Shown: positions 15,466 to 44,932, numbered from the stretch's first letter. The stretch is DNA of 64,000 nt from Candidatus Poriferihabitaceae bacterium (GCA_965243285.1 OZ251537.1:1161019-1225018); one strand, 5' to 3'. Program-made: numbers and translations. Notes: a model not told the origin generated them from the sequence alone.

Positions 15466-15822
15466 ATGCTAAACAACTACTTCCCGATATTGATGTTTAT
15501 CGCGGTCGGGTTTTGCATCGGCGTCATCGCCATCGGCGCCGGCGCGGCATTAGCGCCCAGCAAACCGTACGCCGACAAACTATCCCCGTATGAATGCGGC
15601 TTCGAAGCGTTCGAGGATTCGCGCATGAAATTCGATGTTCGCTACTATCTGGTGGCGATCCTATTCATTATTTTCGATCTCGAAATCGCCTTTCTTTTTC
15701 CCTGGGCCATCGTGCTGGATAAAATCGGCGCCTTCGGCTTCTGGGCCATGATGATTTTTCTCGCCGTGCTGGTGGTGGGCTTCATCTACGAATGGAAAAA
15801 AGGCGCCCTCGAATGGGAGTGA
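15466..15822 (+). CDS. nuoA: NADH-quinone oxidoreductase subunit A
   Basis: [35 protein letters not shown] signature. Confidence 0.95.
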
Positions 15823-15828
15823 TAAAAA

Positions 15829-16383
15829 ATGGCGCTTGAAGGCACCCTGCGCGAAGGCTTCGCCACCGCGAAATTAGACGAACTCATCAACTGGGCGCGC
15901 ACCGGCTCGATGTGGCCCATGTCGTTCGGGCTGGCGTGTTGCGCCGTGGAGATGATGCAAGCCGGCGCGGCGCGCTACGACCTCGACCGCTTCGGCATCT
16001 TATTCCGCCCCAGCCCACGGCAGTCTGATGTGATGATCGTCGCCGGCACCTTAACCAACAAAATGGCCCCGGCGCTGCGGCGGGTGTATGACCAAATGCC
16101 CGAGCCGCGCTGGGTTATCTCCATGGGCTCGTGCGCCAACGGCGGCGGTTATTACCATTATTCCTACTCCGTGGTGCGCGGCTGCGACCGCATCGTGCCG
16201 GTGGATGTGTATGTGCCCGGCTGCCCGCCCACCGCCGAAGCGCTGATTTACGGCATCTTGCAACTACAAAAAAAAATCAAACAAACCAACACCATCGCCC
16301 GCCTCGATACCCCCCGCGCAGCGCCCAGTGAATCACCCATAGACGCGCTTATCGATGCGCCGATGGAAACTCCATCCACCTAA
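15829..16383 (+). CDS. nuoB: NADH-quinone oxidoreductase subunit B
   Basis: [16 protein letters not shown]...[14 protein letters not shown]...VPGCPP. Low-complexity C-terminal tail. Confidence 0.95.
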
Positions 16384-16393
16384 CGCCCAGTCT

Positions 16394-17077
16394 ATGACCG
16401 ACCAAGCCCAACTCATCGCCGGGTTGCCGGATTTGCTTGGCGAGGCGTTGCTCTCGCAAACGCTGAAATTGGGTGAAGTCACCTGCGAAATCGCCGCGAC
16501 ACGCATCTTAGAGGTCGGCAAAAAACTGCGCGACGATAAGCGCATGCGGTTTGAATCGCTGCTCGATTTATGCGGCGTCGATTATGCCGATTGGGGCGGC
16601 GTCGGCGAAACCCATCCGAGCCCGCCGGCCAGCCCGCCGCCTGACCAACACCCGCTCCACCCCCACGGCAGCCGCTTTGCGGTGGTCTATCACCTGCTAT
16701 CGCTGCAGCATAATCTGCGCCTGCGGTTGCGGGTATGCCTGGATGAGGACAATCCGGCGGTGCATTCGGTGGCCACAATATGGCCGTCGGCCGATTGGTA
16801 TGAGCGCGAGGCCTTCGACCTATTCGGCATTATTTTTCATGGCCACCCGGATTTGCGCCGCCTGCTCACCGACTATGGCTTCATCGGCCACCCGTTCCGC
16901 AAGGATTTCCCCTTAAGCGGCGAGGTGGAAATGCGCTATGACGAAGCACGCGGCCGCGTCGTCTATCAGCCGGTCACCATCGAGCCGCGCACCTTAGTGC
17001 CGCGCACCATCGGCAAAGATTCGCCGGTTGATAATTTGCCTGAGGGTTTGCCGGATAATTTGCCGGATGCAAGCTAG
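16394..17077 (+). CDS. nuoC: NADH-quinone oxidoreductase subunit C
   Basis: ...[51 protein letters not shown]. Start taken at MTDQAQL (16394). Separate from nuoD. Confidence 0.9.
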
Positions 17078-17230: not shown

Positions 17231-18502
17231 ATGGCTGAAATTCGCAACTACACCATGAATTTCGGGCCGCAACACCCGGCCGCGCACGGCGTATTGCGCG
17301 TGATCATGGAGATGGACGGCGAGGTGATCGAACGCTGCGACCCGCACATCGGCCTGCTGCACCGCGCCACCGAAAAACTCGCCGAATCCAAACCCTATAA
17401 CCAAAATATCGGTTATATGGATCGCCTCGATTATGTTTCCATGATGTGCAACGAGCACGCCTATGTGCTCGCCATCGAAAAACTACTCGGCATCACGGCG
17501 CCGGTGCGGGCGCAATATATCCGCGTGATGTTCGATGAGATCACGCGCATTCTCAACCACTGCTTGTGGCTGGGCGCGCATGCCTTGGATGTGGGCGCGA
17601 TGACGGTGTTTCTGTATTGCTTTCGCGAGCGCGAAGATTTGATGGACTGCTATGAGGCGGTCAGCGGGGCGCGCATGCACGCCACCTATTACCGCCCCGG
17701 CGGCGTCTATCGCGACTTGCCCGACGCCATGCCGAAGTACGACATCACCCGCCGCCATGACGCCGATGAAACCCGCGCCCGCAACGCAGACCGCGACGGC
17801 TCGCTGCTGGATTTTATCGAGGCCTTCACGGCGCGCTTCCCCGGCTATGTGGATGAATACGAAACCCTGTTGAGCGACAACCGCATCTGGAAGCAGCGCA
17901 CCGTGGATATCGGCGTGGTCAGCGCGCAGCGCGCCAAGGCGTTAGGATTTACCGGCCCCATGCTGCGCGGCTGCGGGGTGGAGTGGGATTTGCGCCGCAA
18001 GCAGCCGTACGCGGTGTATGACGACCTCGATTTCGCCATCCCCGTCGGCGCCAATGGCGATTGCTATGACCGCTACTTGGTGCGCGTCGAAGAGATGCGC
18101 CAATCCAACCGCATCATCCGCCAGTGCGTCGATTGGCTGCGCGCCGACGCCCAAAAAGCCGGCGGCCCCGGGCCGGTGATGACCGCCGACGGCAAACTGG
18201 CGCCGCCCTCGCGCGAGCGCATGAAGGGCGACATGGAGGCGCTGATTCACCACTTCAAATTATTCACCGAGGGCTACTGCATCCCGGCCGGCGAAGCCTA
18301 TGCCGCCATCGAACACCCCAAGGGCGAATTCGGCATCTACCTGGTCTCAGACGGCGCCAACAAACCCTATCGTTGCAAAATTCGCGCCCCCGGCTTTGCC
18401 CACCTGGCGGCTTTGAACGAAATGTCCCAAGGCCATATGTTAGCCGACATGGTCGCCATCATCGGCTCGCAAGACATCGTCTTCGGGGAGATCGATCGGT
18501 GA
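17231..18502 (+). CDS. nuoD: NADH-quinone oxidoreductase subunit D
   Basis: [14 protein letters not shown]...[14 protein letters not shown]...ends [10 protein letters not shown]. Confidence 0.95.
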
Positions 18503-19533
18503 CTGCGAAAGCCATGGCGGTAGACGATGCGCCAGCCCGGGCAGCTCGGGCAACTCGGGCCGCGCAAGCAGCGCACTCCGCGCCGGCCTTGGCCCATTCG
18601 CATACCTCCATCATCGCGCGCGCTACGGCTAAACCGAATTTACCGTGCACAAACCGCGTGCAATGCGCCGATGTTTTGCAATCCTTGCGTGAAATAAAAA
18701 CCGACGCCAGGTTTGATTTAGTCATCGCCGACCCGCCGTATAACATCGGCAAAGATTTTGGCAATGCTAGCGACCGCCAAGAATTGTCGGCGTATTTGAA
18801 ATGGAGTGATGACTGGATTGGTGAGTGTTTGCGCTTGGTGAAGCCATGCGCGCCGGTGTATATCTATGGTTTTGCCGAGGTGTTGGCGCACATTGCGGTG
18901 CGCTACGCAATCGAAAATCAACGCTGGTTGGCGTGGCATTACACCAATAAAACGGTGCCGACCTCAAAATTTTGGCAACGCAGTCACGAGTCAATCTTGT
19001 GTTTGTGGCGCGGCAAACGCCCCACCCTTAATGTGGATGCAGTGCGCGAGGATTACACCGCTGGCTTTCTAAATGGTCCCGCCGGCAAGCCGCGCAAAGA
19101 TTCCAATTGCCGCTATGGCCGTAAGGGGAAAAAGACGGTGTATAACGCGCATCCCAACGGCGCCTTGCCGCGCGATGTCATCAAAGTACCGGCCTTGGCC
19201 GGCCGGGCCGGCTATGCCGAGCGGTGGTTTTATGGTAAGACCTGCCAGACGCTATGTTCGCCGAAGGAAAACAGCGCGCATGAGGCCCATGAAATCGTAC
19301 AACACCCCACCCAAAAACCAGCCGCGCTAACGCAAAAACTCATCGCCGCCGCTGATGCGCAAAGCCCCGCCGTGCTAATCCCCTTCGCCGGCTCGGGTTC
19401 GGAGTGCGTGGTAGCGCAAAAAATGGGCGCGGATTTTCATGCGGTGGAGGTCAATCCTGACTATGCGTTATTGGCGAATAGTTGGTTGGATGCGGGCCGC
19501 CCATCAATGTTGTTCCCGGTGAAAGGACACTGA
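18499..19533 (+). CDS. Beta-class (N6A/N4C) DNA methyltransferase, cassette 1
   Basis: Motif IV DPPYN, HPTQKP, and motif I FAGSGSE (order IV then I, so beta class). Candidate starts are GTG 18499 (GTGA overlap with the nuoD stop) or ATG 18514. The ORF-track extension back to 18124 lies inside nuoD and is rejected. Confidence 0.85.
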
Positions 19534-19534
19534 T

Positions 19535-21730
19535 ATGTCTATAACCGAAAGCGAATCTGTTGTTGCAATTGATATTCAGTTAACCGCTTGCGGGTGGCAA
19601 TTAGACCCTCGCCAGCTTGATCGCAACGTTTTCAAACAAAGGGCGCGCACTGCCGAGCAAAATAAAGCACTCGGTGGCAAGCACCCAGACTATGTGCTTT
19701 ATGCTTATAACGAATCAAATAAACCTACGCTGGTTATTGAAGCCAAAAAACCCGGCAAATCAATGTCGGAAGCGCTGAAGCAGGGGATTAATCGATACGC
19801 TAAGAAAATTAATGCGCCTATTGTAATCGCATCAGATGGGTGGCGTGTCAAAACTTGGCATATAGGGCGTAGGGAACCGTTATTTATTGATGGCCGTGAA
19901 GTGGATGAATTGTTCAGCCCTGAGATGACAAAGGAATTTGTCAAAAATAATAATTTCAGCAGCCTCTCCGAGGATGTGGCATTAGATCAATATGCACTAA
20001 TCGCCAAATTCAAAAAAGCCAATAGCATATTAAAAACCGAGGGACTTTCCGCTGGTATAGAAAGATTCTCGGAATTTGCAAATTTGATGTTCTTAAAACT
20101 CCTAATTGAGGGGGGGGCGGATATTGCGGGATTTTCATGGGCGGATATTGAGGCTAAACAAGGTGTAACTCTGACAAATGCGATAAAAACCATGTTCAGG
20201 GAATTGCGCCGGGAATATTGCAACTTGTTTGAACAGACGAAGGTGCAAAACCCCAAAAATATGGAGCGATTAATTGAACTGCTTTCCTTCCGCCTATCCT
20301 CAGTTAAGCACGACATCAAAGGCCTTGCTTTTGAGCATTTTATACATTCATACACAAGAGGAACAAAAAATGATTTGGGGCAGTATTTCACCCCGCGTCA
20401 CATTGTCAGGATGATGGTGCATTTTTTGAGACCTCAAATCGGTGAAAAAATCTACGACCCCTTCTGTGGCACCGGGGGGATGTTGATTGAATGTTTTCGA
20501 TATATTAGTCAACATATAGAAAGTGATGACGATAAGAAAATACTTAAAGAAAAGACCGTGTTCGGCCGGGACAATTCAAGCGTGGCGAGAATCGCCATGA
20601 TGAACATGATTATGTTCGGCGACGGGCATTCCAATATCACTCAAGGCAACTCGTACGCCATGCTTGGCGAAGCCAAACGCAAATACGATATTGTTATCAC
20701 CAACATTCCATTCTCACAAGAGACAGATTGTTACGAAGGTTACCCGGTGATGCCGTCTGGCGTTAAAAATGGCGACAGCATCGGGGTTCAACATAGTCTT
20801 GAAAGTTTAAAGGATACAAAATCCGCGCGAGCCGCTATCATTGTTCCCATCGGCTTTCTCTATAAGGAACAACTGGCGCAAGAGCGCAAACACATTTTTA
20901 AACACTGGACAATAGAAAGGATTGTGGAATTATCCCCAAAATGTTTCCAGCCCTATACAGAACAACAAACAGCGGCGCTGGTGATTAGCCGGAAAAAACC
21001 CATTGCCGTCTACCCCTACTACCGCGTGAAAAACGATGGATATAGCCAAGATGGATACCGCGTCGCCTTGCCCGGGGAGAACGATATAGACAAAGCAATG
21101 GATGATATTGGCGCAACAGAAAAGCCTATTGCAAACGACTATCCCTCGCCATTTAAAACCATCAATTTATTGATTCGGAAAAACGAATTCAGGCTTGGCG
21201 ACATCGCAAAGATCACAAGCGGGGCGGGGAATATATCTCCGAAAACCAAAATCATCGATGTGATTGGCGGTGTCCACTCAATTCTAATGGTTGCCGATCT
21301 CGCCAAAGCCCACATCGATTACTGCCTGGATGAAAGTATCTACAAACTAACAGAGCGCGCAGTCAGAGATAAAAAACCGTATCTATTTAAGGAAAATACG
21401 ACCATCATTCCAGTGACCGGCAAGGCATCGCTAAAAAATCACCGAGCGTTATTGGGGGCTCCCGCATACGCCACCAGCACCCTTGCCGGTATTGAGGTGG
21501 ATGAAAACAGCATGCATCCTTTCTGCATTTTTAATTTCTTTCTCAACTTTGATATTGAACGAGTGACTTATGACTTGGGCTACCCTGGCATAAGTGTCCG
21601 CATGCTTATGGAAATTGGCATCACCAATTACACTGACAAACAAACGAAAGACATCATCCATCGCGTGGGTTATGTCGTACAATTAAGCAAGGAATTAAAA
21701 ATCAAACGCAGAGAAATAGAATTAGGTTAA
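19535..21730 (+). CDS. Single-chain restriction-modification-specificity enzyme (Type IIG-like: PD-ExK nuclease + HsdM-like N6A methylase + HsdS-like TRD)
   Basis: N-terminal HPDYVLY...LVIEAKK (D..ExK). Middle GQYFTPRHIV, DPFCGTGGML (motif I) and ITNIPFS (NPPF variant). C-terminal FRLGDIAKITSG... TRD. Starts 1 nt after the methylase stop. AT-rich. Confidence 0.8.
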   Translation: MSITESESVVAIDIQLTACGWQLDPRQLDRNVFKQRARTAEQNKALGGKHPDYVLYAYNESNKPTLVIEAKKPGKSMSEALKQGINRYAKKINAPIVIASDGWRVKTWHIGRREPLFIDGREVDELFSPEMTKEFVKNNNFSSLSEDVALDQYALIAKFKKANSILKTEGLSAGIERFSEFANLMFLKLLIEGGADIAGFSWADIEAKQGVTLTNAIKTMFRELRREYCNLFEQTKVQNPKNMERLIELLSFRLSSVKHDIKGLAFEHFIHSYTRGTKNDLGQYFTPRHIVRMMVHFLRPQIGEKIYDPFCGTGGMLIECFRYISQHIESDDDKKILKEKTVFGRDNSSVARIAMMNMIMFGDGHSNITQGNSYAMLGEAKRKYDIVITNIPFSQETDCYEGYPVMPSGVKNGDSIGVQHSLESLKDTKSARAAIIVPIGFLYKEQLAQERKHIFKHWTIERIVELSPKCFQPYTEQQTAALVISRKKPIAVYPYYRVKNDGYSQDGYRVALPGENDIDKAMDDIGATEKPIANDYPSPFKTINLLIRKNEFRLGDIAKITSGAGNISPKTKIIDVIGGVHSILMVADLAKAHIDYCLDESIYKLTERAVRDKKPYLFKENTTIIPVTGKASLKNHRALLGAPAYATSTLAGIEVDENSMHPFCIFNFFLNFDIERVTYDLGYPGISVRMLMEIGITNYTDKQTKDIIHRVGYVVQLSKELKIKRREIELG

Positions 21731-21737
21731 TTCCAAT

Positions 21738-22268
21738 ATGCCGTTTGATGCTCGACAATCTCTAACTTACTTTGCCATGTTTACCATTCAATCACCACCG
21801 CATCTTTCCACCGCCGCGCTAGTCGAAATCGAGCGCGAGGCCGCCAAATACCCGCCGCAGCAGCGGCAGTCGGCGTTGTTAGCGGCGTTGCGCATCGCCC
21901 AAGATGAGCATGGTTGGCTGAGCGGCGCGTTGCTCGAATTGGTGACCGACATCATCGGCGTGCCGGCGGTGCGCGCTTACGAGGTGGCCACTTTTTATTC
22001 GATGTACGACACCAAGCCGGTGGGCAAGCACAAAATCTGCGTGTGCACCAATATCTCTTGCATGCTGCGCGGTTGCGATGAAATCGTCGACCACTTGCGA
22101 AAAAAACTCGGCGTTGAATTCGGCGAGAGCACCGCCGACGGCAAATTCACCCTCAAGGAAGTGGAGTGTCTGGCGGCCTGCGCCGGGGCGCCGATGATGC
22201 AAGTGGACCGCGATTATTTCGAGAACCTAACCCCGCGCCGCGTCGATGAAATTTTGGACGCGCTGTAA
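21738..22268 (+). CDS. nuoE: NADH-quinone oxidoreductase subunit E
   Basis: KYPPQQRQSALLAALRIAQDEHGWLS and the 2Fe-2S cysteines (CTNISCMLRGC...ECLAACAGAPMM). An alternative start at ATG 21777 is equally plausible. Confidence 0.9.
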   Translation: MPFDARQSLTYFAMFTIQSPPHLSTAALVEIEREAAKYPPQQRQSALLAALRIAQDEHGWLSGALLELVTDIIGVPAVRAYEVATFYSMYDTKPVGKHKICVCTNISCMLRGCDEIVDHLRKKLGVEFGESTADGKFTLKEVECLAACAGAPMMQVDRDYFENLTPRRVDEILDAL

Positions 22269-22356: not shown

Positions 22357-23649
22357 ATGAGTGACCCCGCCCTCGCCACCTTGCGCGCCTGTCGCGATGT
22401 GTGCCTGCCCAGCGCGCACGATAACTGCTGGACTTTGGCCGCCTATCGCCGCGCCGGCGGCTACCAGGCACTCGAGAAAATATTGCGCGACGGCGTACAC
22501 CCAGCGGTCATCATCGATACCCTGAAAATTTCCAATCTACGCGGACGCGGCGGCGCCGGTTTCCCGCCGGGCATCAAATGGCGCTTCATGCCGCGCGCCG
22601 CGCCGGGGCAAAAATACCTGGTATGCAACTCCGACGAAGGCGAGCCCGGCACCTGCAAAGACCGCGACATTCTGCGCTACAACCCGCACGCCCTCATCGA
22701 GGGCATGGTCATCGGCGGCTATGCCATGGGCGCCACGGTCGGTTATAACTACATCCGCGGCGAATTCTGGGAGCCTTATCAGCGCATGGAAGCCGCCTTG
22801 GCGGAAGCCCGCGCGGCCGGTTTATTGGGCGAAAACTTATTCGATTCCGGGTTTGATTTTGAGTTGCACAACCACTTAGGCGCCGGCGCCTACATCTGCG
22901 GCGAAGAAACCGCCTTGTTAGAATCCCTCGAGGGCAAAAAGGGGCTGCCGCGCTTCAAACCGCCGTTCCCCGCGGCCTTTGGCTTATACGGCAAGCCGAC
23001 CACCATCAACAACACCGAAACCTTCGCCTCGGTGCCGGCCATCATGCGCGGCGACGGGCAGTGGATGAAGGGCGAATGGTTCCGCGGCCTCGGCGTGGAA
23101 AATGCCGGCGGCGTAAAAATCTTCTCGGTCACCGGCCATGTGGAAAAACCCGGCAACTACGAGATCAACATGGGCACGCCGTTTAGCGAATTATTAAGCA
23201 TGGCCGGCGGCGTATGGAAAGGGCGGCGCTTAAAGGCGGTGATTCCCGGCGGTTCGTCGGTGCCGGTGCTACCGGCCGACATCATCATGGCCGCCACCAT
23301 GGATTACGACTCGCTGTCAAAACTCGGCTCGGCGGTGGGCGCCGGCTCGGTCATCGTCATGGACGAAACTACCGATATGCCGGCGGTGTTAGAGCGCCTG
23401 GCGTACTTTTATTTCGAGGAATCATGCGGCCAATGCACGCCGTGCCGCGAAGGCACCGGCTGGCTATACCGCATTTTGCGGCGGGTAAATGCCGGCGATG
23501 CCACCGCCAAAGATTTAGACACCTTGTTGCAAGTCGCCAACCGCATCGAAGGCCGCACCATCTGCGCCTTAGGCGACGCCGCCGCCTGGCCGGTGCAGAG
23601 TTTTCTCAAGCATTTTCGACCTGAGTTTGAAGCCAAAATAAAATCATGA
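22357..23649 (+). CDS. nuoF: NADH-quinone oxidoreductase subunit F
   Basis: [27 protein letters not shown] and [12 protein letters not shown] motifs. Confidence 0.95.
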
Positions 23650-23777
23650 TCGCCGCTATCAAACGCAACAACGAATTTTCGATTCTACGCGCATGGTTAT
23701 CTAATTTCAGCGTCGGGTTGGTGTTGTTAGGGTTTGCCGTGTTTCTATTCACCATCTCTACGAGGTTTCCAAAATGA
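23646..23777 (+). CDS. Hypothetical 43-aa single-TM peptide (not in the ORF track)
   Basis: ATG overlaps the nuoF stop (ATGA). Translation is [43 protein letters not shown]. Its stop overlaps the next ATG (ATGA). Confidence 0.35.
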
Positions 23778-23962
23778 ACAATTTTATCGACCAATTTATT
23801 GAAGGGGCGACCACGCCGCATGTCATCGTGGTGTTTGTGATTTCGGCTGTTTTATGTACCCTTTATATGCTTATATCCGAAGGCCCCGCGGCCCATGAAA
23901 AACGCCTGCGAGAGGAGAAAGAACGCGAAGACGAAGCCAAACCATCTGCGCATATTTCGTAA
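23774..23962 (+). CDS. Hypothetical 62-aa single-TM protein with charged tail
   Basis: One hydrophobic helix (HVIVVFVISAVLCTLYMLI), then EKRLREEKEREDEAK. Coupled to the preceding mini-ORF. Confidence 0.4.
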   Translation: MNNFIDQFIEGATTPHVIVVFVISAVLCTLYMLISEGPAAHEKRLREEKEREDEAKPSAHIS

Positions 23963-24098
23963 CCGGATGTTACTATGAAAGTCGATGATTTAAAAATTAA
24001 ACACGCTATTCAACTGTAATGTTGAAGTGCAGTGAGATGATTTTTTCACAAATTTATTGAGGGCTTTTCAAGCCCGGTTTTCAAACACTGATTCTCAC

Positions 24099-24248
24099 AT
24101 GCCAGATGATATCGAACTAAAAAAATACTTTAATGAAACCATGTTGAAAAATAATAAATCTTACGCTGGGGCATTGTTTGGAAAAGCCAAAGACATTTTA
24201 GCGATGAATAAACCGATGAAAAACCTGTCAAGTAATCCGCTCAAATAA
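24099..24248 (+). CDS. Hypothetical 49-aa hydrophilic peptide
   Basis: ATG-initiated part of ORF 24057-24248. Very AT-rich with no recognisable motif. Weak call. Confidence 0.2.
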   Translation: MPDDIELKKYFNETMLKNNKSYAGALFGKAKDILAMNKPMKNLSSNPLK

Positions 24249-24271
24249 ACGACGGTACTTTTTAAACCACC

Positions 24272-28156: not shown

Positions 28157-28161
28157 CTTAC

Positions 28162-28245: not shown

Positions 28246-28273
28246 GCGCGACTAATTTTTTAGGAACCCCCTC

Positions 28274-33465: not shown

Positions 33466-33513
33466 TTTTTATCCTGATCACCCCACCCAACGACCCACAT
33501 CACAACTTAAATC

Positions 33514-35397: not shown

Positions 35398-35401
35398 GAC
35401 C

Positions 35402-37268: not shown

Positions 37269-37292
37269 CCTCGTCGCCCTATTCCCAGCCGC

Positions 37293-37331
37293 CCATCAAT
37301 GTGGAAGAACTCGATTCGTTGAAGGGTGATG
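37293..37331 (+). repeat. Direct repeat copy 2 (displaced nuoK 3' end)
   Basis: Encodes ..INVEELDS.. as nuoK does. A 1-nt deletion puts the homologous stop (TGA versus TAA) out of frame. Confidence 0.9.
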
Positions 37332-37350
37332 TTGATTTTCTCTCCGCTCC

Positions 37351-37419
37351 GCTTTCGCTTTTCGCTGCTACGCTTCACCCTCCCCGCTTAACCTGGATAA
37401 ATTAAGTCAAAACTGACTT
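37351..37419 (+). repeat. Decayed copy of the class II two-hairpin module
   Basis: cgcttttcgctgctacgcttcaccctccccgctta...aagtcaaaactgactt aligns with 47853-47910 of copy C (cgcttttcgctgttacgctttactccccccgcttta...gagtcaaaactggcgg). Confidence 0.55.
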
Positions 37420-37714
37420 ATTCCGACCAGCGCGCTTAAACCTCGCATGGATTTCCCTAAATCCTTAGTCCATCACCCCAAAACAAACCCCCCATAAATC
37501 CCCCATAAACCCACGCAAACACGCCATTCCACCTAAAATTCCCCTCAATCACCCAAAATTTCCCTCCCAACCCTCATAAAAGTGCATAATCCGCCGCCGC
37601 AAACTCCCGAGCCACCACGGACGCCGCCAGCGGCAAATTCGGCTGGGTGATAATGATGTATCAAAACACCCGCAACGAAAAAGGGCCAGAATCATCCCCG
37701 CTGATGATGTCTAT

Positions 37715-37773
37715 TGTCAATTAATCGACATCTTTATCGCCGTCCGTTGACAAGCAAACGGGGAGTGTATAAT
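37715..37773 (+). promoter_or_regulatory. Sigma70-like promoter with upstream near-palindrome for R-M cassette 3
   Basis: TTGACA (37747-37752) and TATAAT (37768-37773) with a 15-nt spacer, 37 nt before ATG 37811. The near-palindrome TGTCAATT/AATCGACA at 37715-37730 shares the TTGACA half-site. Confidence 0.45.
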
Positions 37774-37810
37774 ATTAAAACTTCGCCTAAACAAACAACC
37801 AATTCCCACA

Positions 37811-38776
37811 ATGAACAATCCCGACTTAAACGAGTCAAGTGCTGAAGACTCCAGCAACCACGTTCCAGCGAAACACAGTTTTGCGGTGCGTAGCGGCAAA
37901 AAAGTGTATGAAGGATTCAACGCAGAACGCAAGGTTCGCAACCGCAAAGCGAAAGAGCAAAAGCGTTTGGGCTATGAGGCGTTTAGCAAAGATTTTCCGA
38001 ATGAAAATCATCCACTGCCGCAAAAATTCACCGACAAAATTATCACCGGCGATAGTGCGCAAGTATTAAAAAAACTGCCCGCCAATTGCATTGACTTAGT
38101 GATGACTTCGCCGCCGTATAATTTCGGCTTAGACTATAGCGAACATGTTGACACCGATACTTGGCATGCTTATTTTGATAAACTTTTCTTGGTATTTGCT
38201 GAGTGCATTCGTGTCGTAAAACATGGCGGGCGAATCATCGTTAATGTCTCGCCACTATTTTCAGATTACATTCCCACGCATCATTTTGTTAGCAAGTTTT
38301 TTATTGATCAAGGGTTGATTTGGAAAGGTGAAATTTTGTGGGAAAAAAATAACTACAACTGTAAATACACCGCTTGGGGCAGTTGGAAAAGCCCGTCCAG
38401 CCCATACCTTAAATACACATGGGAATTCTTAGAAATTTTTTGCAAGGGTGATTTAAAGAAACCCGGCGAGCGTGCCAACATCGACATTACCGATGATGAG
38501 TTTAAAAAGTGGGTGAATGCCAAATGGTCGATTGCCCCCGAACACAAAATGAAAAAATACGGTCACCCGGCCATGTTTCCAGAGAAATTGGTGATGCAAG
38601 CGTTGAAATTGTTTAGTTTTCAAGGCGACATTGTGCTGGACCCTTTCAATGGAGCAGGCACAACGACTTCGGTTGCGCATCAATTCCAACGGAAATATCT
38701 TGGCATCGATACATCATCTGAGTATTGCAAAATCGCTGAAAACAGAATTATCGATAACGGAGGAATTTTTAAATGA
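37811..38776 (+). CDS. Beta-class DNA methyltransferase (SPPY motif; N4-cytosine or N6-adenine), cassette 3
   Basis: MTSPPYN, HPAMFPEKL, DPFNGAGTT. Long basic N-terminal extension. Confidence 0.85.
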   Translation: MNNPDLNESSAEDSSNHVPAKHSFAVRSGKKVYEGFNAERKVRNRKAKEQKRLGYEAFSKDFPNENHPLPQKFTDKIITGDSAQVLKKLPANCIDLVMTSPPYNFGLDYSEHVDTDTWHAYFDKLFLVFAECIRVVKHGGRIIVNVSPLFSDYIPTHHFVSKFFIDQGLIWKGEILWEKNNYNCKYTAWGSWKSPSSPYLKYTWEFLEIFCKGDLKKPGERANIDITDDEFKKWVNAKWSIAPEHKMKKYGHPAMFPEKLVMQALKLFSFQGDIVLDPFNGAGTTTSVAHQFQRKYLGIDTSSEYCKIAENRIIDNGGIFK

Positions 38777-39477
38777 ACACAGAACAAGAATTGCGCGAAA
38801 TTATCGGCGAATACAACACCGTTGTTAAAGTCGTTGATAAGGATGCCAAAGAAAGCGAAGACCATGCGTACGGCGGTTTTGTTCGTGAGGTAAAAGGAAA
38901 ACTACAGGAGCACATCACCGAATCGCTTATTATGGCTGCGTGGAATTCTGTAGGTGGCGACCCAGAGGTGTTAGAAATTAACAGCAAAAAAATATCCATC
39001 CCTATTAAGGAAGAATACCTTGACCGAATCGAAGATGACGAAGTTAAGAAGCATATCGCCCAAAATATAGATAACTATATTTACAAATTATCAGTTGATA
39101 AGCATGTTTTTGTCAACGGTGAATTTGTCATTGGCATTGAATGCAAGGCATTTACGGAAAACGCCATGATCAAAAGAATTTTGCTCGATTTTGATTTGCT
39201 AAAAACCCAGTATCCGAATTTATTATGCTATTTATTTCAATTAGAAAGTCAACTTGGCGGCGATTACAGAAAATTAACTAAACCAATTTTTGGCAGTCAC
39301 TCAACGCGAACTTTGCAATCATATTTTTCATGCGACTTAACTATTGTTACGCTGCTTGAAGGCGAGAGAGATATTGAACGGGCAATTCATAAGCCTGGGT
39401 GTTTTAAGGAATTGAACCTAGAGGTATTGCAAGATACAGTACATATTCTCGCCAAAGACATGCGGCAATTTTCGTAA
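38773..39477 (+). CDS. Putative Type II restriction endonuclease, cassette 3
   Basis: ATGA overlap with the methylase stop. Candidate PD-ExK core (SVDKHVF...VIGIECKA). AT-rich. Confidence 0.6.
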   Translation: MNTEQELREIIGEYNTVVKVVDKDAKESEDHAYGGFVREVKGKLQEHITESLIMAAWNSVGGDPEVLEINSKKISIPIKEEYLDRIEDDEVKKHIAQNIDNYIYKLSVDKHVFVNGEFVIGIECKAFTENAMIKRILLDFDLLKTQYPNLLCYLFQLESQLGGDYRKLTKPIFGSHSTRTLQSYFSCDLTIVTLLEGERDIERAIHKPGCFKELNLEVLQDTVHILAKDMRQFS

Positions 39478-39627
39478 GGATTATGCTTAAAGTATATCCA
39501 CCCAATGCAAATCAAGCAGTCACTGCATCCATCCGTTGCAAAACCGGCGATAAAGCCCCGTGCAGTAAAATGCACCGGGTGGAGTCATTAATACACCAAC
39601 GGAAAGTGCTCATTTTCGGTCACCACC

Positions 39628-39661
39628 GCCCCGCCTCGTCCATTCGGGCGGGGCTTTTTTT
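39628..39661 (+). terminator. Rho-independent terminator just upstream of nuoL
   Basis: GCCCCGCC-loop-GGCGGGGC followed by T7, 36 nt before the nuoL ATG. Confidence 0.75.
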
Positions 39662-39697
39662 GCTTAAAATCCCCCCCCAAACCTCCACCCCATCCCC

Positions 39698-41659
39698 ATG
39701 AAAACCATCTACCTCGCCATCCCCCTCATCTGCCTAGTCTCTTCCATACTCATCGGACTGTTTGGGCGGCGGATGGGGCGTGTTGGGGCGCATTCTATCG
39801 CCATCGCCGGGGTGGCGGCGGCGTTTGTGTTATCGCTGGTGGTGTATGTGGATGTGCGCGCTGGCAATTATTTCAATGATGTGATTTATACCTGGGCGGT
39901 GAGCGACAATGTGCCGCTGAATATCGGTTTTTTGATCGACCAACTCAGCGCCATGATGATGGTGGTGGTCACTTTCGTGTCGTTGATGGTGCACATCTAC
40001 ACCATCGGCTATATGGCTGGCGACCCCGGCTATCAGCGTTTTTTTTGCTACATCTCGCTGTTTACTTTCGCCATGTTGATGTTGGTGATGGCGAACAATT
40101 TTATGCAGTTGTTTTTCGGCTGGGAGGCGGTGGGTTTAATTTCATACCTATTAATTGGTTTTTGGTATGAACGCGACAGCGCTATTTTTGCCAACCTCAA
40201 AGCATTTTTAGTCAACCGCGTGGGTGATTTTGGCTTCCTGCTCGGCATCGCCGCGGTCATGGCATTATTCGGCTCGCTGGATTACGCCGCGGTGTTCGCC
40301 GGCGCCGACGGCATGCGCGAGCAGACCGTCGCCACCCCGTTCGGCGAGTGGAAGTGGATCACCATCATCTGCCTATTGTTATTCGTCGGCGCCATGGGCA
40401 AATCGGCGCAAGCGCCGTTGCATGTATGGCTGCCGGATTCCATGGAGGGACCCACCCCCATCTCGGCGCTGATTCACGCCGCCACCATGGTCACCGCCGG
40501 CATCTATATGGTGGCGCGTATGTCGCCGTTGTTCGAGTTATCGGAGACGGCTTTATCGGCGGTGCTCATCATCGGCGCCACTACCGCCATGCTCATGGGG
40601 TTGGTGGGCTTAGTGCAAAACGACATCAAGCGCGTGGTGGCGTATTCCACCTTATCGCAGTTGGGCTATATGACCGTGGCGTTAGGCGCATCGGCCTATC
40701 AGGTGGCGATTTTTCATCTCGGCACGCACGCCTTTTTCAAGGCGTTGCTGTTCCTCGCCGCCGGCTCGGTCATCATCGCCATGCATCATGAGCAAGACAT
40801 GCGAAAAATGGGCGGGCTTAAATCGCTGATGCCGGTCACTTATATAACCGCCGCCGTCGGCTCCTTGGCGCTGGCCGGCATCCCCCCCTTCGCCGGCTTT
40901 TTCTCCAAAGACGCCATCATCGAAGCCACCCGCCACAGCGCCATCTGGGGCGCCGGTTATGCCTATGTCATGGTGCTACTCGGCGTATTCGTCACCGCCT
41001 TATATGCATTTCGATTATTGTTTATGACCTTCCACGGCAAAAATCGCTCGGCGCCGCACATCCGCCGCCAGTTGCGCGAACCACCGGGCGTGGTCACCTG
41101 GCCGCTGGTGGCGCTGGCCATCCCCTCGCTGTTGGTCGGCGGAATGTTTTTCGAAGCCGTTATCGATGGCAGTTTTTTCGGCGATGCAATTCGCGTCGCC
41201 CCGCAGCATGATGTGATGGCGCAACTCGCCGCCGTAAACCCAGACAAACATGGCATAGCGTTGATCTTCGCCACCTTACTGCACAGCGTATTAGCGCCGC
41301 CGCTGTGGTTGGCGGCCGCTGGCATCGGCTGCGCCTGGTATGGCTATTGCAAGAGTCCGGCCTGGCCGGGGCGCGTAAAAACCGCCTCCGGGCCACTCTA
41401 TCACCTGCTGAAAAACAAGTATGGATTCGACGCCCTGTACCAAGTGCTATTCGCGCGCGGCTCGGTGGCGCTCGGGCACTTTTTATCGGCGCGTATCGAT
41501 GGCGGCATGGTGGATGGCTTCATCGTAAACGGCACGGCGCGCGCGGTGGGGCTATGCGCCGGCGCCATGCGCACCATCCAAACCGGTCTCACCTATCACT
41601 ACGCATTCGTGATGATCGTTGGCCTGTTTTGTATGATCACCTATTTCGTGTGGTGGTAG
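39698..41659 (+). CDS. nuoL: NADH-quinone oxidoreductase subunit L
   Basis: ...FFGWEAVGLISYLLIGFW...GKSAQAPLHVWLPDSMEGPTPISALIHAATMVTAG... Confidence 0.95.
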   Translation: MKTIYLAIPLICLVSSILIGLFGRRMGRVGAHSIAIAGVAAAFVLSLVVYVDVRAGNYFNDVIYTWAVSDNVPLNIGFLIDQLSAMMMVVVTFVSLMVHIYTIGYMAGDPGYQRFFCYISLFTFAMLMLVMANNFMQLFFGWEAVGLISYLLIGFWYERDSAIFANLKAFLVNRVGDFGFLLGIAAVMALFGSLDYAAVFAGADGMREQTVATPFGEWKWITIICLLLFVGAMGKSAQAPLHVWLPDSMEGPTPISALIHAATMVTAGIYMVARMSPLFELSETALSAVLIIGATTAMLMGLVGLVQNDIKRVVAYSTLSQLGYMTVALGASAYQVAIFHLGTHAFFKALLFLAAGSVIIAMHHEQDMRKMGGLKSLMPVTYITAAVGSLALAGIPPFAGFFSKDAIIEATRHSAIWGAGYAYVMVLLGVFVTALYAFRLLFMTFHGKNRSAPHIRRQLREPPGVVTWPLVALAIPSLLVGGMFFEAVIDGSFFGDAIRVAPQHDVMAQLAAVNPDKHGIALIFATLLHSVLAPPLWLAAAGIGCAWYGYCKSPAWPGRVKTASGPLYHLLKNKYGFDALYQVLFARGSVALGHFLSARIDGGMVDGFIVNGTARAVGLCAGAMRTIQTGLTYHYAFVMIVGLFCMITYFVWW

Positions 41660-41663: not shown

Positions 41664-43157
41664 ATGGAAAATCATCTGCTCAGCGCGTTAATTTGGTTGC
41701 CGGTTATCGCCGGCGCGGTGATTCTCGGCCTCGGCGGACGCGGGCCGACGGGTCAGCACGCCGCCGTGGCGAAAAATCTCGCGCTCGGTTTTTCTATCGC
41801 GATTTTTTTGCTGAGCGTGCCGTTATATGCGCGCTTCGATGCCGCCACCGCCGCCATGCAATTCACCGAGCGTGCAAGTTGGGTGCCGGCCTTCAACATC
41901 CACTACGCGCTTGGCGTAGACGGCATCTCCATGCCGCTCATCTTGCTGACCACGCTGATGACGGTGGTGGTCATCATCGCCGGCCGCCGCGCCATCACCC
42001 AACGAGTGGCGCATTACATGGCGGCATTTTTGATTATGGAAGGGTTGATGATCGGCGTGTTCGCGGCGCTCGATGCGGTGCTGTTTTATCTCTTTTGGGA
42101 ATCCATGTTGATCCCCATGTTCTTAATCATCGGCATATGGGGCGGGCCGAATCGCATCTACGCCACCATCAAATTTTTCCTCTACACCCTGTTAGGCTCG
42201 CTGCTGATGTTGGTCGCCCTGCTGTACTTACGCCACGCCAGCGGCGGCAGTTTCAGCATTTTGGATTATCACGCCCTACCGCTGGATCTAGCGGCGCAAA
42301 CCCTAATCTTCTTCGCCTTCTTCGCCGCCTTCGCAGTCAAGGTGCCCATGTTTCCGGTGCACACTTGGCTGCCCGATGCGCATGTGGAGGCGCCCACCGG
42401 CGGCTCGGTCATCCTCGCCGCCATCATGCTGAAAATGGGCGGCTACGGCTTCCTGCGTTTCAGCCTGCCCATCACCCCGGACGCCAGCCGCGATTTAGCC
42501 TGGCTGATGATCGCGCTGTCCTTAGTCGCGGTGGTGTATATCGCGTTAGTGGCCTTAGCGCAGCGCGACATGAAAAAACTTATCGCCTATTCATCCATCT
42601 CGCACATGGGCTTCGTCACCCTCGGCTTGTTCGTGTTCAACGCCCATGGCGCCGAGGGCGCGATGATGCAGATGATCTCGCACGGCTTCATTTCCGCGGC
42701 GTTGTTTTTGTGCGTCGGCGTCTTGTACGACCGCATGCACTCGCGCATGTTGGATAGCTACGGCGGCATCGCCAAACCCATGCCGGTGTTCGCCGCCTTC
42801 ATGGTGTTATTCGCCATGGCGAATTCCGGGCTGCCCGGCACCTCGGGTTTTGTCGGTGAATTTTTAGTCATCCTCGGCGCCTTCCAATTCGATGCCTGGG
42901 TGGCCGCCGCCGCCGCCCTCACCCTAATTTTCGGCGCCGCCTACACCTTGTGGATGGTCAAGCGCGTCATCTACGGCAAAACGCCATCCGATGAAGTGGC
43001 CGCCTTGCCCGATTTAAGCGCGCGCGAAGTCACCTTCATGTCCATGTTGGCCGCCATGGTGTTGTTAGTCGGTATCTGGCCGAACCCCATACTCGAAGTC
43101 ATGCACGCCACTATCGATAACCTCTTAGCGCATGTCGCGCTCAGCAAATTGCCGTAA
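41664..43157 (+). CDS. nuoM: NADH-quinone oxidoreductase subunit M
   Basis: ...FAVKVPMFPVHTWLPDAHVEAPTGGSVILAAIMLKMGGYGFLRF... Confidence 0.95.
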   Translation: MENHLLSALIWLPVIAGAVILGLGGRGPTGQHAAVAKNLALGFSIAIFLLSVPLYARFDAATAAMQFTERASWVPAFNIHYALGVDGISMPLILLTTLMTVVVIIAGRRAITQRVAHYMAAFLIMEGLMIGVFAALDAVLFYLFWESMLIPMFLIIGIWGGPNRIYATIKFFLYTLLGSLLMLVALLYLRHASGGSFSILDYHALPLDLAAQTLIFFAFFAAFAVKVPMFPVHTWLPDAHVEAPTGGSVILAAIMLKMGGYGFLRFSLPITPDASRDLAWLMIALSLVAVVYIALVALAQRDMKKLIAYSSISHMGFVTLGLFVFNAHGAEGAMMQMISHGFISAALFLCVGVLYDRMHSRMLDSYGGIAKPMPVFAAFMVLFAMANSGLPGTSGFVGEFLVILGAFQFDAWVAAAAALTLIFGAAYTLWMVKRVIYGKTPSDEVAALPDLSAREVTFMSMLAAMVLLVGIWPNPILEVMHATIDNLLAHVALSKLP

Positions 43158-43210
43158 ATCCGCGCTGTAATTTACGCTGCTAGTTAACATGGTCACCCGC
43201 CAACATACCT

Positions 43211-43403
43211 ATATATGTATGTTTATATTTATATCGATATCGATATCGATATCGATGTTGATATGTTATCGATAATGTATCGATGATATATCGATGTTGA
43301 TGTTGATGTCGATGTCGATGTTTATGTCGATATTGATATTTATATCGATGACAATGCCCATATCGATATTGATATCGATATAAATATCGACAACTTTGAT
43401 TTA
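43211..43403. repeat. AT-rich hexamer-periodic microsatellite built of ATCGAT/GATATC-type palindromes (nuoM-nuoN spacer)
   Basis: ...tatcgatatcgatatcgatatcgatgttgatatgttatcgataatgtatcgatgatatatcgatgttgatgttgatgtcgatgtcgatg... Confidence 0.9.
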
Positions 43404-43441
43404 ATCCCGCGCCACAACCCAACCCGCCGCGCAAAACTGCC

Positions 43442-44932
43442 ATGACTTACGCCTCCCTGAACGCCATCGCCGCGCTGCCGGAGATATTCCTCGCCATAGC
43501 GGCCTGCGGCATTCTCGTCATCGGCGTATACGCCAAGCGCGAGTACGGCGGCGCCCTCGGCTGCTGGCTCGGCGTCGCGGCGTTGTTGTGCACCGCAGCC
43601 CTCGCCCATAGCGGCTTATCGGCCGCCCTGTCCATACCGCTGGCGGCGTCGCCGGCCGCCGACCACGCCGCCTTCAACAACATGTTCATCGGCGACCCGA
43701 TGGCGAAATTGCTGAACATCGCGGTGTGCCTATTATCCGCCGCGGCCTTCCTATACAGCCGCCGCTACAACCATGACCGCGGCATTTTCACCTGCGAATA
43801 TTATGTGCTCGGCTTGTTTGCGGTGCTCGGCATGATGGTGATGTCATCCGCCAACCACTTGCTAACCCTATACCTCGGGCTGGAATTAATGTCGCTATGC
43901 CTATACGCGATGATCGCCTATTACCGCGATGACAAATTAGCCTCCGAAGCGGCCATGAAATATTTCGTGCTCGGCGCCTTAGCCTCGAGCATTTTGTTAT
44001 ATGGCATGTCGTTGTTATATGGATTGGTCGGCTCGCTGGAGTTATCCGCCATCGCCGCCGCCGTGGGCGCGCAACAAGATAACGCGGCACTGATTTTGGC
44101 GGTGGTCTTCATCGTCGTGGCGCTCGCATTCAAATTAGGCGCGGCACCGTTTCACATGTGGGCGCCGGATGTATACCACGGTGCCCCCACCTCCACCACC
44201 GCGTTTTTAAGCGCGGCGCCAAAAATCGCCGCCTTCGCGTTAGCCATGCGCCTGCTCGCCGGCGGCCTCGAAGAGTTGCACGCCATGTGGCAACCCATGT
44301 TGATCATCCTCGCGCTACTGTCGGTGACGGTCGGCAACATCATCGCCATCGCGCAAACCAACCTCAAGCGCATGCTGGCGTATTCCACCATCTCGCACAT
44401 GGGTTTTTTCCTATTCGGCATGGCCAGCGGCGGCGCCCACGGCTATAGCGCCGCGTTATTTTATGTATTGGTATACGCGTTGATGAGCCTCGGCGCCTTC
44501 GGCGTTATTTTGTGCTTGGCACGCGCCGATTTTGAAGCCGAAAATTTGGTCGACCTCACCGGCCTGAGCAAGAGCCGCCCGTGGCTGGCGTTATTGATGT
44601 TGATTCTCATGTTATCCATGGCCGGCATCCCCCCCACGGCCGGCTTTTTCGCCAAACTCAGCGTCATCCAGGCCTTGGTGCGCGCCGAATTGGTGTGGGT
44701 GGCGGTGGCCGCCGTGTTGTTAGCGGTGGTCGGCGCTTTTTATTACCTGCGCATCATCAAGTTGATATATTTCGATGCCCCGCCGGACGACGCCGCCGAC
44801 CCCCCCTTAAACGCCCCGCTGGACATGAAACTGTTGCTGTCATGCAACGCCTTCATCATCGTCGCCATCCTGCCGTGGATAAGCGGCTTAATCGCCATGT
44901 GCAATGAGGTTATCTTGCGCTTCGCGGTGTAA
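43442..44932 (+). CDS. nuoN: NADH-quinone oxidoreductase subunit N
   Basis: ...AFKLGAAPFHMWAPDVYHGAPTSTTAFLSAAPKIAAF... Confidence 0.95.
   Translation: MTYASLNAIAALPEIFLAIAACGILVIGVYAKREYGGALGCWLGVAALLCTAALAHSGLSAALSIPLAASPAADHAAFNNMFIGDPMAKLLNIAVCLLSAAAFLYSRRYNHDRGIFTCEYYVLGLFAVLGMMVMSSANHLLTLYLGLELMSLCLYAMIAYYRDDKLASEAAMKYFVLGALASSILLYGMSLLYGLVGSLELSAIAAAVGAQQDNAALILAVVFIVVALAFKLGAAPFHMWAPDVYHGAPTSTTAFLSAAPKIAAFALAMRLLAGGLEELHAMWQPMLIILALLSVTVGNIIAIAQTNLKRMLAYSTISHMGFFLFGMASGGAHGYSAALFYVLVYALMSLGAFGVILCLARADFEAENLVDLTGLSKSRPWLALLMLILMLSMAGIPPTAGFFAKLSVIQALVRAELVWVAVAAVLLAVVGAFYYLRIIKLIYFDAPPDDAADPPLNAPLDMKLLLSCNAFIIVAILPWISGLIAMCNEVILRFAV

Follow-up and report, generated by a model that had tools for sequence, protein, structure and literature searches.

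Restriction-modification and defence-like cassettes at gene boundaries of the complex I operon in a sponge-associated bacterium, a probable series of exchange sites

How can the operon for an essential respiratory enzyme come to carry restriction-modification (R-M) genes at several of its gene boundaries, and are such genes recent arrivals or long-standing residents? The question is raised by a stretch of 64,000 nucleotides from Candidatus Poriferihabitaceae bacterium (GCA_965243285.1 OZ251537.1:1161019-1225018), referred to here as the window, in which the complex I (nuo) operon extends over positions 15466-44932 and is threaded with cassettes encoding DNA methylases, nucleases and a four-gene defence-like module. 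Comparison with the nuo operons of related bacteria leads us to consider it probable that several nuo gene boundaries act as sites resembling minimal mobile elements, at which cassettes devoid of mobility genes, mostly R-M systems and solitary methylases together with the one four-gene module, have been gained, swapped and lost.

All 14 subunit genes, nuoA to nuoN, lie on the plus strand in the canonical order, with separate nuoC and nuoD genes, and they are intact as originally predicted: each matches its Pfam family far above the curated cut-off and tblastn covers it at full length against orthologs in about 80 related loci. For nuoA to nuoD the families are Oxidored_q4, Oxidored_q6, Complex1_30kDa and Complex1_49kDa (E-values 1e-29 to 8e-117), with a GC content at third codon positions (GC3) of 0.71-0.80. 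The operon is preceded by tpiA, secG, a tRNA-Leu gene and a DoxX gene and followed by ddl. Four junctions, denoted D/E, F/G, I/J and K/L after the subunit genes that flank them, are expanded (Table 1); the predicted intervals agree with the recomputed coordinates to within a few bases, and their sum of 13,705 bp bears out the estimate of about 14 kb of added DNA. All the long open reading frames (ORFs) within the inserts are on the plus strand, co-oriented with nuo, and GC3 of the insert genes is 0.39-0.67 compared with 0.70-0.81 for the nuo genes. Three methylase-nuclease units and a four-gene module with PP-loop and GHKL ATPases were found as claimed, the nuclease of the I/J unit being a putative assignment; the F/G insert, which had been counted among the foreign cassettes, turned out to hold three small ORFs without homologs and nothing recognisable as defence. 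M1, M2 and M3 all belong to the beta class of N4/N6 DNA methylases, and the catalytic motifs of the methylases and nucleases are all intact (M1, DPPY/FAGSGS; M2, DPPY/FAGSGS; M3, SPPY/FNGAGT; RM1, NIPF/DPFCGTGG). Pfam searches of the cassette proteins, in the window and in relatives, revealed no integrase, transposase or recombinase domain, and in a search with Rfam the tRNA-Leu upstream of nuoA was the sole match, with no intron or riboswitch in the inserts.

Table 1. Coordinates of the nuo genes, the inserts and other features of the window
Feature	Coordinates	Strand	Remarks
nuoA	15466-15822	+	
nuoB	15829-16383	+	
nuoC	16355-17077	+	
nuoD	17231-18502	+	
D/E junction	18503-21737		3235 bp
M1	18514-19533	+	Beta-class N6-adenine DNA methylase; DPPY, FAGSGS motifs
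RM1	19535-21730	+	Fused nuclease-methylase, 731 amino acids (aa); ends 7 nt before nuoE
nuoE	21738-22268	+	Pfam 2Fe-2S_thioredx, 5e-54
nuoF	22357-23649	+	Pfam Complex1_51K, NADH_4Fe-4S, SLBB
F/G junction	23650-24271		622 bp
F/G insert	23646-24248	+	Three small ORFs, from six-frame translation
43-aa ORF	23646-23777	+	ATGA overlap with nuoF stop; one predicted transmembrane (TM) helix
62-aa ORF	23774-23962	+	ATGA overlap with preceding stop; TM helix
63-aa ORF	24057-24248	+	
nuoG	24272-27070	+	932 aa; Pfam match; NuoG aligned with relatives
nuoH	27107-28156	+	Pfam match
nuoI	28274-28765	+	Pfam match
I/J junction	28766-31042		2277 bp
M2	28765-29784	+	N6-adenine DNA methylase; DPPY, FAGSGS; ATG shares one base with nuoI stop (TGATG)
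R2	29781-30449	+	Putative restriction nuclease, 222 aa; ATGA overlap with M2
I/J gene 3	30462-30932	+	Acidic 156-aa protein; no family matches
nuoJ	31043-31663	+	Pfam Oxidored_q3, 2.5e-41
nuoK	31821-32126	+	Pfam Oxidored_q2, 2.8e-29
K/L junction	32127-39697		7571 bp
K/L cassette a	32185-37268	+	Conserved four-gene module k1-k4
k1	32185-33465	+	PAPS-reductase-like PP-loop ATPase; ORF opens at 32095; SGGRSS motif; phrog_424 PAPS reductase, 1e-28
k2	33514-35397	+	GHKL ATPase with transducer domain; PADLOC PDC-M33A, 3.4e-18
k3	35402-36286	+	294 aa; no assigned family
k4	36279-37268	+	All-alpha protein, 329 aa; AF2 model pLDDT 89
nuoK'	37270-37331	+	Displaced copy of last ~65 nt of nuoK, directly after k4 stop
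Leader of K/L cassette b	37332-37810	+	Non-coding, ~480 nt
M3	37811-38776	+	N4-cytosine-type methylase; SPPY; Pfam N6_N4_Mtase, 1.1e-37
R3	38773-39477	+	Restriction endonuclease; ATGA overlap with M3; PADLOC REase_II PDLC03499, 1.7e-94
72-aa ORF	39483-39701	+	Overlaps terminator-like hairpin; no family matches
Intrinsic-terminator-like hairpin	39628-39661	+	GCCCCGCC...GGCGGGGC then T7; 37 nt upstream of nuoL ATG
nuoL	39698-41659	+	Pfam Proton_antipo_M, Proton_antipo_N; see nuoN
nuoM	41664-43157	+	As nuoL
nuoN	43442-44932	+	As nuoL; nuoL-nuoN Proton_antipo_M 1e-80 to 5e-82, GC3 0.75-0.80
Type I R-M specificity subunit	26-682		Left edge of window
NYN-domain gene	2847-3485	-	Overlaps end of mttB
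DUF5131 gene	46929-47744		After ddl
Tyrosine integrase	49559-50545	-	
Truncated PLD-SNF2 protein	50936-51958	-	

The window derives from a sponge-associated gammaproteobacterium (Ca. Poriferihabitaceae/Arenicellales), and the nuo operons closest to its own are those of sponge-associated Gammaproteobacteria assembled from metagenomes (Candidatus Poriferihabitaceae, Arenicellales or Ca. Spongiihabitans); the species-level metagenome genomes compared are denoted below by L numbers. The nuo operons are normally compact, as had been assumed: in about 45 related complete operons most nuoA-nuoN spans fall between 14.1 and 14.9 kb and none exceeds 17.8 kb. The 29,464 bp of the window, about double the usual length, is the largest by far. 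In a tree of NuoF, NuoH and NuoI the window forms a clade with L081, L010, L002, L001 and L003 (about 85% mutual identity), and inserts at nuo junctions occur in all six members, with differing contents. Among the sister clades of sponge symbionts only L011 departs from the compact form, and L004-L009 and L012-L019 are fully compact. At I/J, five unrelated contents are found besides empty sites: the M2-R2 pair (window, L081 and L010), a methylase-Mrr fusion (L001 and L003), several methylases (L086), a 209-aa protein without assigned function (L087/88) and a phage lysozyme (L028), while L002 and others are empty there. Two or three contents are seen at D/E, where the window carries M1 and RM1 and L001 and L011 an Eco57I-family methylase, and two at K/L. 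Further inserts in relatives comprise glyoxalase and cytochrome b561 genes at B/C (L002), a Phage_VG64 protein at H/I (L055), a PD-(D/E)xK protein at J/K (L068) and NOV_C and NgoFVII-like genes before nuoF (L081).

The sites themselves are precisely defined. At empty junctions the upstream stop codon overlaps the downstream start codon (TGATG or ATGA), for example CGCTGATG at D/E and GGATGAAA at K/L, and the cassettes sit exactly between the stop codon and the next start codon, flanked by Nuo proteins that are 65-99% identical across the compared genomes. All five cassettes of the window and about 15 independent inserts in relatives are co-oriented with nuo, for which the chance under random orientation is 0.03 and about 3e-5, respectively. 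The original image of the operon as a landing strip for foreign cassettes therefore holds as regards recurrent, co-oriented occupation, mostly by methylase or R-M genes and with differing contents, but not for two units that are old residents (see below). Empty alleles, which were to be sought in the closest nuo loci, are present in close relatives, and the relatives do not share identical cassettes of host-like composition, their contents differing and GC3 deviating. Perfect empty K/L and I/J sites in members of the clade, together with the decay of a nuclease in L081, weaken the supposition that embedding hinders clean loss.

That decay is seen at I/J. M2 (Pfam N6_N4_Mtase, 2.7e-40) has orthologs directly 3' of nuoI in L010 (68.5% amino acid identity) and in L081 (72%), and its ratio of nonsynonymous to synonymous divergence (dN/dS) is 0.13 relative to L081; here and below, dN/dS and dS are Nei-Gojobori estimates. 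R2 is a putative nuclease, to judge from its position and a D..DVK motif, with only a sub-threshold HincII-like match (Pfam 3e-3, 17.3 bits against a cut-off of 23.7; PADLOC REase_II 8e-3), and its start is kept in L010 (78%). In L081 the methylase is intact and the partner nuclease persists as a 38-residue C-terminal remnant abutting nuoJ (L081:7532-7645), an R-M pair apparently turning into a solitary methylase along the usual path of R-M decay. The I/J insert of L086 (L086:1166-5954) extends over 4.8 kb and includes several pieces of N4/N6 methylase genes, pieces of C5 methylase genes and one opposite-strand gene; no other nuo insert showed a gene in antisense orientation. Coverage of this contig is 2x, and sequencing errors may account for the split genes.

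The first cassette at K/L is the four-gene module k1-k4, and it is not confined to the window. The same module lies at K/L in L081, L086, L087-L089 and L123, and it is in these loci, always between nuoK and nuoL, that the five closest matches to k2 in the databases (54-58% identity) are located; remoter relatives of k2 (49% identity or less) occur in unrelated contexts outside nuo, some beside insertion sequence (IS) elements (L082-L085 and L124). For k1-k4 dN/dS is 0.08-0.19, and the ratio of dS between L081 and L088 to dS between the window and L081 is 0.35-0.53 for k1-k3 and 0.42 for nuoH. Because dN/dS is low and the dS ratios are congruent with that of nuoH, M2 and k1-k4 have been kept by selection and have diverged together with the operon; both units are, on these estimates, old residents that have co-diverged with nuo over dS > 1. 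Their GC3 is also low in L081 and L088, so that the low GC of these units is no sign of recent arrival, and the reading of the low-GC inserts as recent landings fails for M2 and the K/L module.

Long residence does not preclude movement. In L086, NuoI, NuoJ and NuoK are 73-85% identical to those of L081 and represent a different nuo lineage, yet k1 and k2 share 92% and 85% identity with their L081 counterparts, more than the L081 proteins share with those of L088, a genome with Nuo proteins at 90-99% identity to those of L081. In L123 and L086 the first 24 nt of nuoL (codons 1-8, ATGAAAAAYATCTAYCTSGCRATT) stand on both sides of the module, the left copy being degraded in L081 and L087, and in L086 an own-looking K/L spacer and nuoL start (ACACGCGGATGAACA) lie directly before the imported copy of the nuoL start. 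Sequences just inside the ends of the module are conserved among nuo-resident copies (L081, L086, L087/88 and L123), and the copies outside nuo are without them. Given the incongruence of L086 and its extra nuoL start, the L086 module clearly arrived laterally from another nuo operon, at the same junction and together with junction sequence of the donor.

As to its identity, the module falls, by its gene content, outside Dnd/Ssp, BREX and every complete PADLOC system. k2 covers positions 36-406 of the 627 in the PDC-M33A model, k1, k3 and k4 matched no PDC model in PADLOC even at E <= 10, and the module is consequently not a PDC-M33 system; no paper mentioning PDC-M33 was found in the literature. 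k1 has weak local matches to SspD and BrxP, that to SspD extending over 36 residues (1.5e-5), but k2 is a GHKL ATPase and PADLOC found no cysteine desulfurase, no DndD/SspC-type (SMC-like) ATPase and no PglZ, BrxC or BrxL in the module, which sets it apart from Dnd/Ssp. The likeness to PDC-M33, Dnd/Ssp and BREX type 4 is thus limited to k2 for PDC-M33A and, weakly, to k1 for SspD/BrxP, the remaining components being unmatched. The AlphaFold2 (AF2) model of k2, with a predicted local distance difference test (pLDDT) score of 81.5, gives Foldseek matches to the ATPase-transducer regions of Topo VI-B, MORC and GyrB (E-values 1e-9 to 1e-6). For k3 the related clusters number 67 among 1.84 billion representatives, and the model of k4 matched none of the solved structures in the PDB. 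Relatives of k4 number 96, among them several proteins of Bathymodiolus gill symbionts and one of a Nitrospira (k3/k4 homologs P0249-P0343).

Between k4 and nuoL lies a second cassette, here named b, that bears the marks of a younger insertion. Directly after the k4 stop codon stands nuoK', in which an exact match of 26 nt (32089-32114 = 37293-37318, E-value 9e-10), found by a targeted short-word BLAST search, forms part of a similarity over about 65 nt. It reads GATTCGTTGAAGGG, like nuoK of L087/L088, against GATTCGCTTAAAGGG in the nuoK of the window, and departs from the resident copy where other members of the clade agree, which suggests flank DNA imported with cassette b. M3-R3 is absent from L081, L087 and L088 and has the lowest GC3 among the inserts (0.39-0.47). 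It is 73% identical in nucleotide sequence over 1477 bp to an M-R pair of L090 in a non-nuo context, flanks outside the coding region being dissimilar between M3-R3 and this closest sequenced relative; R3 homologs are annotated 'restriction endonuclease' in the source databases. Most simply, the pair may have come on the DNA of a relative that already carried M3-R3 downstream of nuoK; its entry would then have required homologous crossing-over within nuoL and illegitimate joining where k4 ends. The leader of the cassette also contains, at 37353-37389, a short dispersed repeat (TTTCGCTTTTCGCTGYTACGCTT...) with a second copy at 47847-47883 (89% over 37 nt), which lies downstream of the DUF5131 gene and is followed by hairpins.

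The D/E unit, the F/G ORFs and this second K/L unit are absent from the relatives examined and appear specific to the lineage of the window. At D/E, M1 (Pfam N6_N4_Mtase 5.9e-28; PADLOC MTase_II 1e-38) likely starts at the ATG at 18514, 11 nt past the nuoD stop codon. RM1 combines an HSDR_N PD-(D/E)xK nuclease with a gamma-class N6_Mtase and a C-terminal region (Pfam N6_Mtase 1.3e-37, HSDR_N 4.2e-07 at 30.4 bits against a cut-off of 25.1, HSDR_N_2 6e-06; PADLOC MTase_I 2e-49, mad2 8e-32), carries the motifs PD..EAK, DPFCGTGG and NIPF and has a GC3 of 0.48; a fusion of this kind beside a separate M1 resembles Type IIG or Eco57I-style bifunctional enzymes with a companion methylase. A 13-nt similarity after the nuoD stop codon between the window and L001 was judged too short for interpretation. 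In L002, the closest relative by NuoH, nuoD and nuoE are separated by a GC-rich stretch of 318-384 bp without a convincing gene (L002:4442-4825), possibly the trace left by a cassette since lost. The F/G insert has a GC content of 0.405, and the junction is compact in L081, L001 and L002; its ORFs gave no Pfam, PADLOC or PHROG match and no tblastx or blastn similarity to any related locus compared.

How the cassettes are expressed can be approached through their junctions. Overlapping stop and start codons link nuoF with the 43-aa ORF, nuoI with M2, M2 with R2, k3 with k4 and M3 with R3, and these are compatible with translational coupling in a polycistronic mRNA. Compared with shuffled sequence, the window shows no excess of promoter-like or terminator-like matches, with the sole exception of the hairpin proximal to nuoL, in which eight consecutive G-C pairs are followed by seven T and for which the RNA fold has an energy of -23.4 kcal/mol (z = -3.3), the terminator scan having scored 9 pairs, 7 of them G-C; the 72-aa ORF that overlaps it is probably not a gene. 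In the leader of cassette b a promoter-like TTGACA-17-TAATAT lies at 37747-37775 (10 of 12 matches), the overall count of such sites being not above that of shuffles. Because of this promoter-like site and the terminator-like hairpin, the youngest cassette, M3-R3, suggests a self-contained transcription unit, which could exert a polar effect on nuoLMN. The original supposition that embedding would guarantee transcription is put in question by this terminator-like hairpin. The genes nuoL, nuoM and nuoN are intact and host-like in codon usage despite the hairpin, and read-through, a promoter further downstream or lowered expression may apply to them.

Under the explanation that we favour, cassettes would move between relatives by recombination in which the conserved nuo genes serve as homology arms, sometimes on one side only, and the displaced nuoK end before the youngest cassette would be the product of one such one-sided event. 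Only co-oriented cassettes without strong polarity would persist, because other inserts would cripple complex I; the nuo promoter would drive most of them, translation being coupled in several cases, and their persistence would reflect a defence benefit combined with R-M addiction. A bolder version can be formulated, in which the essential respiratory operon is a clade-wide, multi-site exchange platform whose cassettes travel from nuo operon to nuo operon by homology arms and are expressed from the nuo promoter, and in which k1-k4 constitute a new, long-resident system of DNA-directed defence or modification. This we offer tentatively, regarding it as doubtful in its full extent; the cassettes would then be constitutively expressed and hard to delete, as a result of expression from the nuo promoter through coupled junctions.

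Several results weigh against exchange by recombination at nuo boundaries. Recombination tracts were not seen in the flanking nuo genes, and any such tracts must be very short because NuoK of L086 is not L081-like. Searches for flanking direct or inverted repeats with a seed of 10 gave nothing convincing for the D/E, F/G and I/J cassettes, and the 24-bp duplication at K/L could equally stem from a transposition-like or site-specific event. A donor with the arrangement nuoK-(M3-R3)-nuoL was not found among the relatives of R3, the best of which is 71% identical, and 33 of 33 contexts of R3 relatives were outside nuo, including 32 metagenome relatives of 60% identity or less without nearby nuo genes; the P0140 pair is also non-nuo. 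A strong terminator before nuoL, if the hairpin acts as one, fits ill with the survival of non-polar inserts alone. Moreover, a comparison confined to the 34 kb that flank the operon in the window does not establish that nuo is preferred to other operons. The dS values of flanking genes were also considered as a recombination signal and set aside: dS of nuoI and nuoJ is low in every pair, whether the cassette is shared or not, and is uninformative because the pattern is gene-specific.

A first rival argument is that nuo is not special: with sponge symbionts full of R-M and defence genes, any long operon with many junctions would look alike, the impression given by nuo being one of ascertainment. 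An enrichment of R-M systems in sponge symbionts has been reported (PMC5649159), and further low-GC defence or mobile genes do occur elsewhere in the window, namely the Type I S subunit, the NYN gene, the DUF5131 gene, the integrase and the PLD-SNF2 fragment. Among 500-bp tiles, however, a GC content below 0.52 was found for 25 of 58 within the nuo span and for 10 of 70 outside it (Fisher p = 3e-4), so that low-GC DNA is three times denser inside, with the caveat that the flanks amount to 34 kb only and include two giant single genes. The reuse of the same junctions by unrelated cassettes, the many sponge-symbiont relatives with fully compact nuo operons and the passage of the K/L module from nuo operon to nuo operon also speak against saturation, which we treat as a possible but rather less convincing account. 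Still less, though not negligible, credence attaches to the idea that the cassettes, or at least the K/L module, were placed by site-specific or transposition-like insertion with recognition of the nuoK/nuoL boundary, instead of by homologous exchange in the flanks. The 24-bp duplication of the nuoL start, the ends conserved in five assemblies and the use of the same site after lateral transfer into L086 would fit such a mechanism; yet no recombinase, transposase or integrase domain was found in or beside the module, its copies outside nuo do not share the end sequences, and the imported nuoL start lying next to the resident one in L086 fits import of donor flank DNA.

The old units invite a different thought, that domestication has given some inserts, especially the four-gene module or the solitary methylases, an accessory role in complex I. 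Their long co-residence, congruent divergence and strong purifying selection are in keeping with domestication, as are the tight start/stop overlaps with nuo genes, and the nuo cluster of Rhodobacter capsulatus is reported to include urf genes, one of them for a putative methyltransferase (PMC9036352). The module is nevertheless also present away from nuo, beside IS elements and unrelated genes, and is missing from close relatives with an intact nuo operon; PAPS-reductase-like PP-loop proteins, MORC/Topo VI-B-like GHKL proteins and DNA methylases are, moreover, typical of DNA-directed defence or modification, and we judge domestication to be highly unlikely. Assembly chimeras at the junctions are scarcely credible. 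The source is a metagenome-derived genome, but all the proteins of the window that were looked up are singletons from one contig of 2,793,270 bp, the adjacencies nuoI-M2 and nuoK-k1..k4-nuoL recur in the independent assemblies L010, L081, L086-L089 and L123 from other samples, and at every junction the genes retain intact frames and overlapping starts and stops.

Exchange at boundaries of the minimal-mobile-element kind, the reading we prefer, has to be set against systems already described. Minimal mobile elements were reportedly described by Saunders & Snyder (2002) and Snyder et al. (2007). The nuo junctions resemble them in the conserved gene pairs that bracket alternative cassettes or empty sites, and in the exchangeable cassettes, free of mobility genes and often R-M systems; for recombination in the flanks the signs are indirect, consisting of nuoK' before cassette b and of the L086 module, which is incongruent with its own nuo operon and accompanied by an imported nuoL start. 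They differ in that several sites lie in series within one 14-gene respiratory operon, in that the comparison is made across species-level metagenome genomes rather than strains of a naturally transformable species, and in that some cassettes are ancient residents and flank recombination is deduced from flank fragments. A minimal mobile element is defined as a conserved gene pair that brackets whole-gene cassettes varying from strain to strain, incorporated by homologous recombination in the flanks; among the examples is pheS/pheT in Neisseria, where the site holds a Type II R-M system (PMC3082526). R-M systems can also insert into operon-like clusters, insert with target duplication and substitute one another (PMC2993543). 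The nuo cassettes share with these selfish units, studied by Kobayashi and co-workers, the insertion between genes of an operon-like cluster, the target duplication at the K/L module, the substitution at I/J and D/E and the decay of R before M in L081; they differ in that the duplication measures 24 bp against about 100 bp there, in that five cassettes occupy one operon and in that one of them is not an R-M system. The claim that it is unusual for defence genes to be threaded through an operon is tempered by these precedents (PMC2993543, PMC3082526), which differ from the present case in the occupation of several sites in one respiratory operon.

The inserts share with defence islands the clustering of defence-type systems between conserved core genes and a turnover of content among relatives. 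Classical defence hotspots lie between operons, often near tRNA genes or integrases, whereas those of nuo are distributed among several junctions within one transcription unit, all in sense orientation. A looser parallel is offered by the unidentified reading frames (URFs) among the complex I genes of the alphaproteobacteria Paracoccus (nqo) and R. capsulatus (nuo), which are small conserved host genes in the same orientation. The present inserts are likewise co-oriented non-nuo genes interspersed in the operon, but they are of R-M or defence type and deviate in composition; for R. capsulatus, urf7 is mentioned in the paper cited above (PMC9036352). The literature yielded no paper that connects nuo operons with R-M systems and sponge symbionts. 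The features specific to nuo, relative to all these precedents, are the serial sites in an essential operon, the uniform sense orientation, the clade-wide occurrence in uncultured symbionts, the long residents and the uncharacterised module.

Other peculiarities of the locus concern the nuo genes and the flanks. NuoG, with 932 aa compared with about 800 aa in L081 and L001, carries in-frame low-complexity insertions, namely about 70 residues of NSA/KSA-rich repeats near 467-540, 10 residues near 401-410 and a 30-residue C-terminal extension, and its DNA, especially at about 25670-25890, contains 38-nt imperfect repeats. The nuoM-nuoN spacer (43158-43441; 284 bp, GC 0.37) is built from the 6-nt unit ATATCG, repeated about 27 times, with ATCGAT/GATATC-like palindromes, scores too as long imperfect inverted repeats and measures 0-70 bp in relatives; the nuoH-nuoI spacer (28157-28273) is filled by six copies of the 12-nt unit GAGGCCGATTTT. 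C/A-rich tracts occupy the 25 nt before the starts of nuoJ, nuoK, nuoL, nuoN and M3 (for example CCCCCCAAACCTCCACCCCATCCCC before nuoL), with no Shine-Dalgarno-like purine run. In the flanks, each of the defence or mobile genes is oriented as its host neighbour. The two giant genes, 6252-11990 (minus strand, 1912 aa) and 52966-63909 (minus strand, 3647 aa), encode He_PIG/HYR Ig-like repeats and a C-terminal autotransporter beta-domain, and nearby are genes for the trimethylamine methyltransferase MttB and the corrinoid activator RACo.

If the proposed exchange is correct, gene boundaries in core operons would serve as stable sites for the exchange of defence genes, with mobility conferred by conserved neighbours rather than by integrases, and searches for defence systems that are confined to islands between operons would miss such systems. 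It would bear on the sharing of immunity genes among uncultured sponge symbionts, and it poses a question for operon biology, namely how 14 kb of passengers, an apparent terminator included, can be accommodated in an essential transcript of 14 genes. The rare but conserved four-gene module, found in sponge and mussel symbionts, is nominated as a candidate for experimental study.

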